A stretch of DNA of 30,616 bases from a virus (IMGVR_UViG_2671180357_000001:1-30616); one strand, 5' to 3'; positions 21,597-26,671 are shown, counted from the first letter of the stretch. Notes: generated by a model from the sequence alone, not told the origin. Numbers and translations: made by a program.

Positions 21597-23477
21597 TTAA
21601 TACTCCGTCACGTTTTCCTGTCGCCACGCCTCGTCATATTCCGATTTCGGCATATTGGCGATGTAGCTATATGGAGATCCTGATTCAAGTTGCAGGAACT
21701 GGTGCGATTGCTCGTCAAGGAACAACGGGACACCACCTTCCCAACCTTCGCCGTTACGTTGTTTTTCAAGCATCAAAACAGATGCCGGAGATGCCAGTAG
21801 CTGTTCGTCCTTCTCTGACATTTTTTCACCACTCTGAACTCTCTGTAACGCTCTCTCGCGAGCCTTGTTACGCCAGATGATGAAAAGGTTGTCTGTCAGG
21901 TCTGTTATCGCTCCAGAGCCTTTTACGTCCATTTTCCCGGTTGGTTTTTCTTCGCTGTCTCCTTTTCGCGAGTGAGTAACGAGAATGACGTGGGAGTTTG
22001 TTTTGTTTTTGAAGTCGCAAATCGAGTCAACAAACGCCTTCTGCCCGTTATAGTCATCGTCGCCTATGCCACATTTCATCAGGCTGTCGATGATGAATAA
22101 CTGGATCCCGTATCGGCGGCGAGCGTAGTCGAATATTTCGATCAGCCTGTCGGCTTTCGCCGTTCCGGTCAGGCCAAACACCCAAAGTCTTTCGTCATAA
22201 AATTTAAATGCAGAGTCAATTTCCAGCACTGGCGGCATCTTGCAGCACGTCGCCTGACGGGTAAGGCGCTTAAGGAGAATACCAGGCTTCAGCTCAAGTG
22301 ACGCGATGCACGTCTTCACACCCTGACGCATTGCCTCAAGTGCCATATGCCCGACAACCTCCGTTTTTCCGTGACCGTTCACACCATTGACCAGCGTCAA
22401 CTCGGCCTCACGGAACTGGAATTTATCTGCCAGAGATTCCCACGGTGGATTAAACAGATACTGCTGCTTGCCGTAGAAAGCGTTGATAGTGTCCTGGTAA
22501 AACTCTCGCGCGCTGTAGAGTTCTTCAGGATCGAAGTAGGATGCCGTGCCAATGTACTGCCAGATTTCATCCTCGGTAACACCGTTCATCAGGCATTCGT
22601 TGATGTCTTTGTACGGCAGAGTAACAAGACGGCAACGATGTTCACCGAGTCGGCTTGCGATTTCCCTTGCGGCTTCACGACCAACATCATCAACGTCCAT
22701 CGAGATAAATATTTCCTCAAACCTGTCGAGGTTGTGATACTCAAACTCAATCCACTGCTGCTTAGCGCCTTTCCCGCCACCAAACGGCACGGATAACGCC
22801 GAGATGCCGTATTGCGCATAGCTCATACAATCAATTTCGCCTTCGCAAAGTACAACTGCCCTCACGCCAGCGTCCAGAGCCTGCCATCCGAACAGACAAG
22901 GTTCGCAATCACCTTCTGCCATAATGACTTTCTTCCCGTCCGGGCGCTCAGTGCTGATTCGCTTGACCTGCAACAACTCACCATCGCGTTTGTACGGAAT
23001 CACCAGAGCATCCAGTTCCCGCTCTCCATTCCACACCTTGCCGCTGACAACCTCGTAGCGCTTTACGACTTCTGGCGATATGCCACGCGATTGCAGGTAC
23101 TCAAGATGGGATTCTGTCCTGGTAACGTAGCGGGCGATTTTCTTGCGATCAGGTCTGGAGAATTTCTTCTCACGTTTGGCATCGAAATGGTGATCGTCAT
23201 CCTTGATTCCGAGAAATGCTTTCGCTTCCTGCATCGCCTGATGCAGGTTAATTCCACGACATGCCATCCACAAATCAAGCATGTCACCGCCGTCTCCCTC
23301 AGCGAAATCAGCCCATTTTTTCTTGCCGCTAAGGTTGACCTTAAGGCTGTTTCCCTTGTCACCGTTGACGTTACCGGCAACCCACTCATGCCCCTCTTTC
23401 TTGCCGTTTGGCAACAGGTGCGGAGCCACCCTGTCAACCTGCGCCCAAAGCAGGTCGCTAAGTTCACTTGGCCTCAT
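21597..23477 (-). CDS. Bifunctional DNA primase/replicative helicase
   Basis: 626 aa; N-terminal zinc-binding/toprim-like region and C-terminal helicase with Walker A GVNGHGKT; occupies the lambda P / P22 gene 12 position. Confidence 0.8.
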   Translation of the reverse strand: MRPSELSDLLWAQVDRVAPHLLPNGKKEGHEWVAGNVNGDKGNSLKVNLSGKKKWADFAEGDGGDMLDLWMACRGINLHQAMQEAKAFLGIKDDDHHFDAKREKKFSRPDRKKIARYVTRTESHLEYLQSRGISPEVVKRYEVVSGKVWNGERELDALVIPYKRDGELLQVKRISTERPDGKKVIMAEGDCEPCLFGWQALDAGVRAVVLCEGEIDCMSYAQYGISALSVPFGGGKGAKQQWIEFEYHNLDRFEEIFISMDVDDVGREAAREIASRLGEHRCRLVTLPYKDINECLMNGVTEDEIWQYIGTASYFDPEELYSAREFYQDTINAFYGKQQYLFNPPWESLADKFQFREAELTLVNGVNGHGKTEVVGHMALEAMRQGVKTCIASLELKPGILLKRLTRQATCCKMPPVLEIDSAFKFYDERLWVFGLTGTAKADRLIEIFDYARRRYGIQLFIIDSLMKCGIGDDDYNGQKAFVDSICDFKNKTNSHVILVTHSRKGDSEEKPTGKMDVKGSGAITDLTDNLFIIWRNKARERALQRVQSGEKMSEKDEQLLASPASVLMLEKQRNGEGWEGGVPLFLDEQSHQFLQLESGSPYSYIANMPKSEYDEAWRQENVTEY

Positions 23478-23584
23478 GATTCCCTCAGATTGAGATTTTT
23501 AAACCAGAAATCGACAAACGAAATACTTAACCAGCCGTGGTTATAACCAGCGACCAGTAGCGATTTGATTTTTGATTTCATGGT

Positions 23585-24445
23585 TCACCTGTCGAAAAAC
23601 ACGTAGCCAGTTTTCGATACGGTGATTGCGGATGATGGTTTGGATTGTGGTTGAATAGTTTCTGGCTTCTCGTCGTTCCAGCGCTGACCGTTCAGGTAGC
23701 TCGATGGTAACAACCTGTCGAATCCGAACTGCTTACCATTCCTGCATGCGATGTCTTCTGCCAGCATCGTGGCAAACTCGCTTGCCGTACCCCTGGTAGT
23801 TTTACGCCATTCCCTGAACTGTGTTCTGAATGCCGAAGCTGCGTTTTTCTTCCCGGCTTTCCGCATGCCTGCACACCAGAATATTTCCTCGAATGCCTTG
23901 TCGGTTTCTTCGTGACGGTCAGATGATTTTTCACACTCCGTCCGAACACTTTCGGACATAGTGTTTTTATTATTTCTTTTTTCTTTTGTAATAGTTTCTT
24001 TTGTGTGTCCCTGTTTTGGTGACAGCGCTGTCACCGTTTTGGTGACACTTTTTGTCACCAATGCAGTGACATTATCACCAGAGTAGTGACACCCTTCGAT
24101 TTGCCATTCCTCGATGTTCTTGTTAGGCCCGATTTGCTGGCCTTCGCGAAGGATTACCTTCATCGCGATAAGCTCATTCTTGGCCTTGTTTACCTTCTGT
24201 CTTGGCAGCCTGGTAATTTGAGCTAACTGACTATCAGAGATGCGATCCATCTTTTTACCGTAGCCGTATGTTTTACGGCATATGGCGTGGGCAACCTTGC
24301 TCTGATTTTTCGTTAAATCTGCGCCGATAAGCTCTTCATACAGGGCATTTGCAAGACGGGTATAACCATCTTCAACTTCTGCCACACGACGCTCCACAGG
24401 CCGTTGTGAAGGCCTTAAATGTGTTACGGTTGCAAGATTACTCAT
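23585..24445 (-). CDS. O: Replication initiator, lambda O-like N-terminal domain
   Basis: N-terminal region ([53 protein letters not shown]) resembles recalled lambda O; origin iterons lie inside the gene. Confidence 0.8.
23957..24075. promoter_or_regulatory. Replication origin: palindromic GGTGACA/TGTCACC iterons plus adjacent AT-rich region, inside the O gene
   Basis: Perfect 18-bp palindrome GGTGACAGCGCTGTCACC, a 19-bp GGTGACACTTTTTGTCACC and further half-sites, followed on the O coding strand by an AT-rich stretch. Confidence 0.6.
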
Positions 24446-24584
24446 GACCTTTCTCCTTCTGCATCAGCTTCACTTTTTCCAACTCAGCCCGGAATCGACC
24501 AGGCTGCTTGAAGCTGGACAGGAAGCGATCACGTAGTATGTGTTTGTGAATTTTGTCCTGGTAAGGACTGAGTTGTTTTGTCAT
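24438..24584 (-). CDS. Small basic hypothetical protein (48 aa) between cII and O
   Basis: [48 protein letters not shown]; AGGAG 5 nt upstream of the ATG; 3' end overlaps the O start. Confidence 0.4.
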
Positions 24585-24616
24585 AATGACTCCTGTGGAT
24601 TGATCCAGTAATTACC

Positions 24617-24913
24617 TCAGAATTGCATATCAATTTGCTTAAAATCCTCGGTGGCGGCCGGGGATTTTTTCTTTGTGATTTCATCAAGCGCATACTTAAA
24701 AGCCCTGCTAATCGGACTGATGTCTGATGCCATTCCGAAAGCACACAAGACCGAAGCAATAAATCTCCAGTCCGTTCTGCTTATCTTCGATTCATGACAG
24801 CCAATCATCTTTGCCAAACCGCGCTGGGTAAGCGTTGACAGGTTGATGAGTAAATCTGTTTCTGCGCGATCAACGTCGCGCTGTGATAGTTTGCTGTAAC
24901 TTGTTTGTTCCAT
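24617..24913 (-). CDS. cII: CII-like transcriptional activator
   Basis: 98 aa; HTH region and C-terminal KKKSPAATEDFKQIDMQF resemble recalled lambda CII. Confidence 0.75.
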   Translation of the reverse strand: MEQTSYSKLSQRDVDRAETDLLINLSTLTQRGLAKMIGCHESKISRTDWRFIASVLCAFGMASDISPISRAFKYALDEITKKKSPAATEDFKQIDMQF

Positions 24914-24977
24914 TTCTTACTATTTCCATAGGTAAATAATCACTAATACTCATCTTTCGATGAGTGATTAATTAGTT

Positions 24978-25011
24978 ACCGCGTTGTCGGCGGTGCAGAT
25001 TGATAAAGAGC
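24978..25011 (-). promoter_or_regulatory. nutR: boxA (GCTCTTTAT) and boxB hairpin (ACCGC-CGACAAC-GCGGU) between cro and cII
   Basis: boxA matches the nutL boxA; boxB loop shares the GACAA core with the nutL boxB; placement as in lambda and P22. Confidence 0.55.
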
Positions 25012-25022
25012 TGATCCGCTTA

Positions 25023-25238
25023 TTAAGCGGCTTTGTGTTCCGGCGGGAACACGTCATCAAGACTGACTTTTGCGCCTAACTTGTTTAGGCACGCAACAAG
25101 AGCACGGCATGTTTTAAGGTCTGGGAAGCGACGACCAGATTCCCAATGTCCGATAGCTCCCTGTGTGCATCCAACCGCCTTAGCAAGTGTTGTTTGAGAG
25201 ATATTCAGTGACTCTCGATATTTTCGTAGGTTGCTCAT
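25023..25238 (-). CDS. cro: Cro-like HTH repressor
   Basis: ORF 25023..25409 trimmed to Met58 (MSNLRKYRESLNISQTTLAKAVGCTQGAIGHWESGRR...), GGAGGG RBS; divergent from cI; recognition helix nearly identical to the cI N-terminal helix. Confidence 0.75.
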   Translation of the reverse strand: MSNLRKYRESLNISQTTLAKAVGCTQGAIGHWESGRRFPDLKTCRALVACLNKLGAKVSLDDVFPPEHKAA

Positions 25239-25264
25239 ATGCCCTCCATAGTAACCATGAAACA

Positions 25265-25293
25265 ATAATACGATATGTACTTTTGGAATGCAA
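25265..25293 (-). promoter_or_regulatory. pR candidate promoter (TTGCAT-N17-TATTAT) driving cro
   Basis: Minus-strand -35/-10 hexamers with 17-nt spacer; the spacer closely resembles the pL spacer. Confidence 0.5.
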
Positions 25294-25340
25294 ACAAAAA
25301 ATACATCTTGTGCATGGATGGTTTTAGTACAGAGCGTAAT
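25267..25340. promoter_or_regulatory. oR: three candidate 15-bp repressor operator sites (about 25267-25281, 25300-25314, 25326-25340)
   Basis: 6-3-6 sites of the form A(A/G)TACA-N3-(C/T)GT..., e.g. AATACGATATGTACT; the same motif recurs three times at oL. Confidence 0.5.
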
Positions 25341-25355
25341 AATAAGGATATGAAG

Positions 25356-26009
25356 ATGAAATGGTATGAACTGGCTAGATCCAGAATGAAAGAACTCGGC
25401 ATAACTCAAGAGAAGTTAGCTGAAGAGCTTGGTATGACGCAGGGTGGAATTGGTCACTGGTTGCGCGGATCTCGTCATCCATCTCTTGACGAGATTGGTG
25501 TGGTGTTTAAATACCTTGGTATTGATAACGTCTCATTCAACCACGACGGTACATTTTCACCTGTTGGCGAATACTCATCTGCCCCCGTTAAAAAACAATA
25601 TGAGTACCCTGTTTTTTCTCATGTTCAGGCCGGGATGTTCTCGCCTGAGCTTAGAACCTTTACCAAAGGTGATGCGGAGAGATGGGTCAGCACAACCAAA
25701 AAAGCCAGTGATTGTGCGTTTTGGCTTGAAGTTGAAGGTAATTCCATGACCGCACCAACAGGATCCAAGCCAAGCTTTCCTGACGGGATGTTAATTCTCG
25801 TTGACCCTGAGCAGGCTGTTGAGCCAGGTGATTTCTGCATAGCCAGACTTGGTGGTGACGAGTTTACCTTCAAGAAACTGATCAGGGATAGCGGTCAGGT
25901 GTTCCTACAACCACTAAACCCGCAATATCCAATGATCCCATGCAATGATAGCTGTTCCGTAGTAGGGAAAGTTATCGCCAGCCAGTGGCCTGAAGAGACA
26001 TTTAGTTAA
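25356..26009 (+). CDS. cI: CI-type prophage repressor (S24 LexA-like autopeptidase); C-terminal domain lambda cI-like, N-terminal HTH domain distinct
   Basis: ORF 25275..26009 trimmed to Met28; residues from [21 protein letters not shown] to the end are near-identical to recalled lambda cI, including the Ala-Gly cleavage site; N-terminal HTH differs. Confidence 0.85.
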
Positions 26010-26041
26010 CAGCCTCACCACTCTAAAACACACAACAATAA

Positions 26042-26069
26042 CCCGACCTTAGCGTCGGGTTTTCTTTTT
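26042..26069 (+). terminator. Rho-independent terminator after cI
   Basis: CCCGAC-CTTAGC-GTCGGG hairpin followed by TTTTCTTTTT. Confidence 0.6.
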
Positions 26070-26088
26070 CCAAAATATAAATCAATAA

Positions 26089-26161
26089 AATACAAAGTGT
26101 TATAAAAAACTAACCACATTTAGAACATTTTGTATTGACTCAATAAAGTACACATCGTACT
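26089..26161. promoter_or_regulatory. oL: three candidate 15-bp operator sites (about 26089-26103, 26122-26136, 26147-26161)
   Basis: AATACAAAGTGTTAT, AGAACATTTTGTATT and AGTACACATCGTACT; the last overlaps the pL spacer and -10 and matches an oR site at 13 of 15 positions. Confidence 0.5.
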
Positions 26162-26163
26162 AT
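26135..26163 (+). promoter_or_regulatory. pL candidate promoter (TTGACT-N17-TACTAT)
   Basis: Good -35/-10 hexamers with 17-bp spacer, upstream of nutL and N. Confidence 0.55.
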
Positions 26164-26209
26164 TTAGCCATCAGCAGGAAGCTGGAAGCCAAACGGAACA
26201 GATTGGCAG

Positions 26210-26243
26210 GCTCTTTAACTTCGATGGGGCGCTGACAAAGCGC
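26210..26243 (+). promoter_or_regulatory. nutL: boxA (GCTCTTTAA) and boxB hairpin (GCGC-TGACAAA-GCGC)
   Basis: boxB matches the recalled P22 nutL boxB; boxA-like element 10 nt upstream; lies between pL and the N start. Confidence 0.65.
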
Positions 26244-26362
26244 AAACAGATACCAAACGAGATGGGTTTGGCGGTGATGTGAATTGCAGCTGCAACGACA
26301 GCAACCAGAAGATCAGCACCTGGCGCATCACCACCAAAGCCATTTCACATGAGGAAAATATC

Positions 26363-26671
26363 ATGACGGTAATCGTGTACGGGAAATCAACATTTGCAGG
26401 AAATGCCAAAACTCGCCGTCATGAGCGGCGCAGAAAGCTGGCTATCGAGCGTGATGCTATATGCAACATCATCGATTCGATCTTCGGCACAGACAGTGAG
26501 GAACCTGTTCAGGAAGCCCCGAGAAAACGTTTAATCCTTTCTGAAAAAGCAATATCACTCGGCAACATTCGTAACCAAAATACCGACGAATGCAGTGGAA
26601 GTATTTGCCTGCCAAACGTAGCTCTTTACGCGGCAGGCTACCGGAAATCAAAACAACTGACGGCGAGGTAA
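26363..26671 (+). CDS. N: Antitermination protein N, P22 gp24-type
   Basis: ORF 26279..26671 trimmed to Met29 (MTVIVYGKSTFAGNAKTRRHERRRKLAIERD...), an arginine-rich motif matching recalled P22 gp24; GAGGAAAA RBS. Confidence 0.75.
   Translation: MTVIVYGKSTFAGNAKTRRHERRRKLAIERDAICNIIDSIFGTDSEEPVQEAPRKRLILSEKAISLGNIRNQNTDECSGSICLPNVALYAAGYRKSKQLTAR

Follow-up and report, generated by a model that had tools for sequence, protein, structure and literature searches.

What occupies the space between the cII-like gene and the replication initiator gene of a lambdoid phage, and does it act through a protein, through an effect on translation of the initiator, or by neither route? This question is raised by IMGVR_UViG_2671180357_000001:1-30616, a stretch of viral DNA of 30,616 nucleotides (nt) that was analyzed at its full length and is referred to here as the window. 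On its minus strand, an open reading frame (ORF) of 48 codons runs from an ATG to a TAA at positions 24438-24584 and is preceded by the Shine-Dalgarno sequence AGGAG (24590-24594, minus strand), 5 nt before the ATG. An earlier reading of the sequence, hereafter the original prediction, had proposed exactly this ORF, with the same coordinates and the same AGGAG ribosome-binding site, either as a small basic protein or as part of a leader affecting translation of O. It had also described the ORF as occupying the cII-O space and overlapping the O start, and this agrees with what was found: a gap of 32 nt separates orf48, as the ORF is called below, from the end of the cII-like gene (24617), and 8 nt are common to orf48 and the O-like initiator gene. 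The explanation that we favor as a whole, with moderate confidence, is that orf48 is a true gene, coupled to the initiator gene through this overlap, whose protein acts on a target common to the phages that carry it.

Identity of orf48 and evidence for a protein-coding gene

To compare orf48 with its relatives, we used 21 distinct orf48 DNA variants, in which codons 4-41 were analyzed by the Nei-Gojobori method and the median ratio of nonsynonymous to synonymous substitution rates (dN/dS) was taken over the pairs with dS >0.1. The results showed a median dN/dS of 0.22-0.24 in the orf48 frame. Of the five other frames, four gave values of at least 0.86, and the fifth, an antisense frame, gave 0.31. 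The pooled ratio of the corresponding proportions (pN/pS) was 0.32 in the orf48 frame, and the values for the two remaining forward frames were 1.19 and 1.59. Across the 21 variants, no stop codon was found in the orf48 frame, against at least 20 in each other frame; one antisense frame also gave a low value (0.39), yet it contains 25 stops, and its low score was attributed to shared third positions. Synonymous codon use was wide, with six codons for Leu22 and five for Arg30, and the variable sites numbered 24, 18, and 33 at codon positions 1, 2, and 3, respectively. The motif H-K-x-I-x-R-D...R-x-R-x-E was retained down to approximately 35-47% identity, and the residues Q9, H13, K14, I16, R18, D19, L22, F25, R30, R32, E34, and K39 were invariant in these most distant members. 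The low dN/dS, the stop-free frame and the retention of the motif together identify orf48 as a genuine protein-coding gene under purifying selection. The original prediction had staked its small-protein reading on conservation of the frame in relatives; this check was run, the frame proved to be conserved with a clear synonymous-site pattern and without stops, and the reading was thereby borne out. An ATG-initiated ORF of at least 48 codons appeared on the same strand in 173 of 20,000 mononucleotide shuffles (0.9%) of the 179-nt stretch between the cII stop and the O start. An ORF of such length is thus rare in shuffled sequence and chance is an unlikely explanation, but the decisive evidence for the gene is the conservation of the frame across relatives, not the shuffle test.

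The product, which starts MTKQLS..., matched the Pfam family PF10872 (DUF2740) with 99.4 bits (cut-off 27; E 9e-29), its residues 6-48 covering all of profile positions 1-43, and PHROG 1913 with an E value of 2.7e-28 over the full positions 1-48. In tblastn searches, it was 100% identical to HK022 orf48, 100% identical to HK620 hkaW, and 85.4% identical to P22 orf48; the name of the gene in VT2-Sakai is H0097. The identical ORF is annotated in the HK022 record U02466 as orf48, well conserved in P22 and unknown. In the curated P22 genome (BK000583), orf48 occupies the corresponding position and likewise shares 8 nt with gene 18, and in the mEp043 record the gene appears as DUF2740. By megablast, the orf48 region matched 192 phage records, and among the approximately 100 loci fetched at first, 77, including HK022 (L001), had the same 147-nt orf48 DNA. 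The phage of the window is itself a mosaic relative of vB_EcoP-720R6, mEp043, and Sf101. The layout cII-oop-orf-O-P has been described before, with the statement that lambda is without orf48 (PMC3349717). The ORF of the window is therefore the orf48/hkaW gene of P22/HK022-type lambdoid phages, Pfam DUF2740, which is already annotated and not new; it shows the defining features of this family in its profile match, its near-identity to the founding members, its genomic position and its purifying selection.

The orf48 protein has a mass of 5.8 kDa and contains 8 lysine, 4 arginine, 2 aspartate, and 4 glutamate residues; its isoelectric point of 10.09 and net charge of approximately +5.8 agree with the basic product that had been predicted. 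Modeling with AlphaFold2 from the family alignment gave two helices (residues 7-23 and 28-44) joined at a conserved Q-P-G turn, with a mean predicted local distance difference test (pLDDT) score of 81.6, suggesting that the product is a basic two-helix hairpin. A Foldseek search with this model gave no match in the PDB at E ≤10 and matched BFVD viral models only at E >1. The sole sequence match in the PDB, the C-terminus of PhnI (E 0.07), was rejected as homology because it ends in a C-terminal EK-x-H that is encoded in orf48 by the Shine-Dalgarno sequence and ATG of the initiator gene; the 3′ end of phnI may be built likewise.

DUF2740 is a narrow family. At 90% identity, 54 clusters were obtained in the first search and 85 when divergent members served as queries, and an exhaustive profile search of 1.8 billion proteins yielded just 19 representatives at 50% identity. 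The same search revealed no informative fusions; P0056 represents read-through from c1 into orf48, and both P0061 and P0070 are repeat proteins. The hosts are Enterobacteriaceae and close relatives, namely Escherichia, Salmonella, Citrobacter, Klebsiella, Cronobacter, Pluralibacter, Atlantibacter, Shimwellia, Erwinia, and Biostraticola. An exception to this host range, a 386-bp contig of Xanthomonas pisi DSM 18956 (L086; protein P0048) whose product is identical to E. coli phage orf48 over residues 4-48, is most likely a contamination of the assembly rather than a true homolog. In Salmonella phage PSP2-22 (L094; ON886116, UNVERIFIED_ORG), orf48 is fused in frame to a DUF4752 protein at 2438-2908, beside T7-like ligase and RNA polymerase genes, and this fusion is probably a chimeric assembly or a deletion derivative.

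Two names attached to the gene call for comment. PHROG 1913 is labeled "tail protein," which does not fit a product of 48 amino acids (aa) whose gene lies between cII and the initiator gene in every locus and never in a structural module. The label appears to be an annotation error of a widely used resource, and it has spread into the RefSeq phage records NC_002371 (P22), NC_019706, NC_027398, and NC_070949. The "orf48" of Silas et al., the O-antigen modifier gnarl1, is ATI16509.1 of Klebsiella phage KpV79; it is unrelated, "orf48" being merely a library number, and the DUF2740 motif was absent from the supplements of that study. A literature search on "hkaW" returned unrelated words only.

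Linkage of orf48 to the initiator gene and relation to the oop region

In approximately 110 loci, orf48 was located directly upstream of a replication initiator gene. The initiator of the window is an O-like protein of 286 aa (23585-24445, minus strand; Pfam Phage_rep_O, 128.8 bits; TIGR01610), and the junction ATGAGTAA (24438-24445, minus strand) provides the 8 nt shared by the two genes: the initiator gene opens with an ATG located within the final codons of orf48, whose TAA comes 5 nt downstream of that ATG (AUGAGUAA). The initiator gene has its own Shine-Dalgarno sequence, AAGGAG (24453-24458, minus strand), within orf48 codons 43-44 and 7 nt before the initiator ATG; relatives have a purine-rich Shine-Dalgarno sequence at this position in other letters (AAGAGG, AAGGGT, AGAGGT). 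The string GGTCATGAGTAA was present in 102 of 104 loci. Among the distant loci, the overlap is 8 nt long in L107, L109, and L110 and 4 nt long (ATGA) in L108, and an 8-nt overlap was also found in members from Klebsiella, Pluralibacter, an Erwinia phage, Biostraticola, and Cronobacter.

The genes on both sides of orf48 vary. The initiators behind it are of the Phage_rep_O type (MSNLATVT...) or of the HK022 type (MSNISNLAEAR..., no Pfam hit), and these two dissimilar types occur around orf48 with several cII types in all combinations; the first megablast search placed mosaic breakpoints at both ends of the ORF, with matches spanning query positions 1-310 or 139-401. An extra gene was found between cII and DUF2740 in six loci, encoding a ParB-HTH protein of 265-266 aa in L101 and L109, a protein of 178 aa without a Pfam match in L102, L104, and L110, and a protein of 249 aa in L107; the start of DUF2740 shares 4 nt with the inserted gene in L101, L107, and L109. 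No locus, including the six layouts with an insertion after cII, had a gene between DUF2740 and the initiator gene. As insertions occur only on the cII side, orf48 is tied to the initiator start and not to cII or oop. These results showed an invariable connection between orf48 and the initiator gene.

The third gene of the replication module encodes a lambda-P-like protein, a DnaB-like protein, or a primase/helicase of 626 aa, and orf48 precedes all three kinds of module, namely that of the window, the lambda O-P arrangement, and the P22 18-12 arrangement. As a near-invariant protein is found together with dissimilar initiators, helicases or loaders, and cII types, its target would be common to all these phages, and we infer that a host component or a shared nucleic acid is more likely than one specific phage protein.

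Alignment of the window to lambda revealed that the cII end, the oop sequence, the Shine-Dalgarno sequence, and the ATG are homologous, with ACAGGAGTCATTATGAC identical. The sequence ACTGGATC.ATC.ACAGGAGTCATTATGAC is common to both, and the gene that comes after it is O in lambda and orf48 in the window. The shared start site thus opens O in lambda (MTNTAK...), whereas in the window it opens orf48, and the initiator start comes 140 nt later. Lambda has no orf48 and its O works without any, which argues that the orf48 product is an accessory rather than a core replication factor.

By homology with lambda oop, which we take to lie at 38675-38599 of the lambda genome, an oop-like antisense RNA is expected on the plus strand of the window at 24595-24671 (3′ end approximate). 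The nucleotide at its 5′ end is the complement of the base adjoining the orf48 Shine-Dalgarno sequence, its 3′ part overlaps the cII end, and a terminator-like hairpin with a T run is located at its end (24641-24668). The putative −10 element of its promoter pO, CATAAT (24582-24587, plus strand), which was also placed by homology, overlaps the orf48 ATG on the opposite strand. In P22 (BK000583), the annotated oop promoter spans the first nine orf48 codons and the 3 nt before the ATG, and the oop terminator lies in the c1 end. A scan for consensus sigma-70 promoters called no site between 24300 and 25100, pO included, and Rfam searches (permissive over 23000-26500, at the gathering threshold over the whole window) returned no family for oop or within the ORF. 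The only Rfam match, Mu-gpT-DE (E 0.22), fell inside the O gene and was dismissed as chance. The assignment of oop and pO in the window therefore rests on homology with lambda and on the annotation of P22. The link to oop is lost in the loci with a gene inserted after cII.

As for the remaining neighbors in the window, the cII-like gene (24617-24913, minus strand) encodes a transcriptional activator of 98 aa (Pfam Phage_CII, 110 bits), and the third module gene (21597-23477, minus strand) encodes the 626-aa primase/helicase (Pfam Toprim_2, AAA_25, DnaB_C; PHROG 239). The module at 21597-24445 (minus strand) combines an O-like initiator with a Toprim/DnaB-like primase-helicase, as in mEp043, Sf101, and ES18 gp61. 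The O-like gene and the primase/helicase gene are separated by 107 nt, in which a 35-codon ORF (MKSKIKSLLVAGYNHGWLSISFVDFWFKNLNLRES) was observed at 23474-23581 (minus strand). The final 4 nt of this ORF are shared with the primase/helicase ATG (start 23477), and mEp043 carries no annotation for it.

Predicted masking of the initiator start and competing explanations

Folding of the orf48 mRNA by RNAalifold gave a consensus in which a 5′ arm, ACUACGUGAUC (24527-24537, minus strand; orf48 codons 16-20), is predicted to pair over a long range with a 3′ arm, GGUCAUGAGU (24440-24449, minus strand), which contains the initiator AUG. For the window, P22, and the Erwinia phage, this helix was also present when single sequences were folded, in the minimum free energy or the centroid structure, and its pair probability was 0.7-1.0 in 19 of the 21 variants. 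The unpaired probability of the initiator AUG was at most 0.09 in 20 of the 21 variants, and 100 synonymous recodings of each orf48 gave means of 0.08-0.59; in all 20 of those variants the natural accessibility lay below the recoding mean, ranking 0-2 of 100 for the most divergent sequences. The Arg18 codon, in the 5′ arm, is CGT in 24 of 25 variants. In the distant loci L107 and L108, the AUG was predicted to pair with the homologous codons through partly different base pairs.

An internal hairpin, CAGCCUGG-UCGAUU-CCGGGCUG (24485-24506, minus strand), was also predicted within orf48 codons 27-34. It consists of 8 conserved base pairs with 96.9% of the alignment cells paired, one G-C/G-U alternation, and variation in the loop. 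Its stems are near-invariant at synonymous sites (CCT in 21/21, CGG in 20/21, and GCT in 20/21 variants), while Arg30 in the loop uses its five codons; a covariation test of the hairpin found no compensatory change.

These observations suggest a model in which orf48 would be transcribed as a member of the early-right (pR) operon, flanked on one side by cII and the antisense oop RNA and on the other by the initiator gene, and would be translated from the AGGAG-N5-ATG site that serves gene O in lambda. Codons 16-20 would pair with the initiator AUG and mask the initiator start, and ribosomes reading orf48 would unmask this start and deliver ribosomes to it, which amounts to translational coupling. 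The orf48 protein, in turn, would have a target that all these phages share, for example a host factor or a nucleic acid. Judging from the overlap and the predicted folding, functional coupling from orf48 to the initiator gene is reasonably probable. The second proposal of the original prediction, a leader that affects O translation, gains some support from the overlap and from the predicted masking by codons 16-20, which make coupling plausible rather than proven.

Several points weigh against this model. The long-range helix showed neither compensatory covariation nor any double-sided change, and since both of its arms are constrained by coding, conservation alone proves nothing. The recoding ranks were 5-14 of 100 for many variants, and the variants are not independent of each other. 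The locus L109 has CGA at the Arg codon and has lost the helix; the AUG is predicted to pair with the orf48 start region in L101 and L109 and locally in L085. The initiator gene retains a good Shine-Dalgarno sequence and might be translated independently, and the functional O of lambda indicates that orf48 is dispensable for this initiator class. On the protein side, no relative in fold or sequence points to an activity; in the literature searched, no paper mentioned DUF2740 and no functional work on orf48 was found, the papers on orf48 merely naming the gene.

Many of the same points would be expected if orf48 made only a small trans-acting protein, with the 8-nt overlap reflecting gene packing, the initiator translated from its own AAGGAG, and the helix arising as a by-product of complementary sequences that are constrained by their proteins. 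UCAUGA is itself a palindrome, the initiator Shine-Dalgarno sequence is retained in all variants, the helix is without covariation and has its exceptions in L085, L101, and L109, and even the most distant members conserve, as protein sequence, the R-D residues that the 5′ arm encodes. This account is difficult to reconcile with the retention of the overlap in essentially every locus across unrelated initiators, with the constancy of CGT at Arg18 (24/25 variants) while Arg30 uses five codons, and with a natural AUG that is less accessible than the recoding mean in 20 of 21 variants, and we regard it as unlikely, if still deserving serious attention. A pure leader peptide or upstream ORF like tap of plasmid R1, in which translation would matter and the peptide would be functionless, could explain the position and the overlap with a replication initiator gene, the oop-like antisense RNA ending beside the orf48 Shine-Dalgarno sequence, and the predicted masking of the initiator AUG. 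The purifying selection on amino acids (dN/dS 0.22), with many synonymous changes at conserved residues, the retention of the motif at approximately 35-47% identity, and a product that is confidently predicted to fold make such a leader very improbable.

It could also be argued that orf48 is no gene and that its frame is open by accident, the DNA being conserved as a linker between modules that provides a recombination joint and carries the oop promoter. The 77 loci that share the identical 147 nt while both flanks differ, the mosaic breakpoints at both ends, and the overlap of pO with roughly the first nine codons would suit a linker. The divergent copies, on the other hand, change mainly at synonymous sites and never acquired stops or frameshifts, the gene persists where it no longer adjoins cII or oop, and pO covers just approximately 26 of the 147 nt, so that this possibility is scarcely credible. 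The preferred reading thus remains a true orf48 gene that is coupled to the initiator gene and encodes a protein with a common target.

Comparison with known systems

Among phages, the orf48 genes of HK022, P22, and HK620 agree with that of the window in identity, length, place (from cII or c1 with oop to the initiator gene), and the ATGAGTAA overlap. The difference is in the downstream module, which is the O-like gene with the 626-aa primase/helicase in the window (as in mEp043 and Sf101), O with P in HK022, and gene 18 with gene 12 in P22. orf48 is a very common and highly conserved early gene of P22/HK022-type and Stx-converting phages to which no function has been assigned, and it has been mislabeled in phage annotation. 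To the existing annotation, our analysis adds a quantitative proof of coding, a rule of linkage to the initiator start across dissimilar initiators, and a testable model of coupling; the fixed overlap with two dissimilar initiator types, together with the predicted masking of the AUG, provides a testable hypothesis for the control of initiator synthesis.

Rop/Rom of ColE1 is a small helical-hairpin protein that binds RNA and whose gene lies in a replication-control region, adjacent to that of an antisense RNA. The predicted orf48 product is a similarly small two-helix hairpin from a replication-control region beside a putative antisense RNA, but no sequence or Foldseek similarity to Rop/Rom was found, and the analogy is speculative.

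In plasmid replication control, the tap-repA-CopA system of R1 and the repY-repZ-Inc RNA system of ColIb-P9 use leader peptides as couplers, and the peptides made from tap and repY are regarded as having no importance as proteins. In these systems, a short ORF terminates at the initiator start or overlaps it, as orf48 does in the window; the initiator start is masked by RNA structure until the short ORF is translated, which is predicted for the window; and an antisense RNA ends at the ribosome site of the short ORF, which in the window would hold by homology with lambda, whose oop RNA has cII mRNA as its known target. It is conceivable, though rather doubtful, that orf48 serves both purposes, in cis as a tap/repY-like coupling ORF gated by the oop antisense RNA and the long-range helix, and in trans as a hairpin protein that acts on a host factor or RNA common to these phages and tunes the onset of replication or the choice between lysis and lysogeny. 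If true, this would represent a plasmid-style circuit of antisense RNA and leader peptide in lambdoid replication, which lambda has lost. Unlike tap and repY, to which it has no homology, orf48 encodes a peptide under selection (dN/dS 0.22) with a conserved motif, suggesting that orf48 may resemble these couplers in cis and yet be more than a mere leader peptide.

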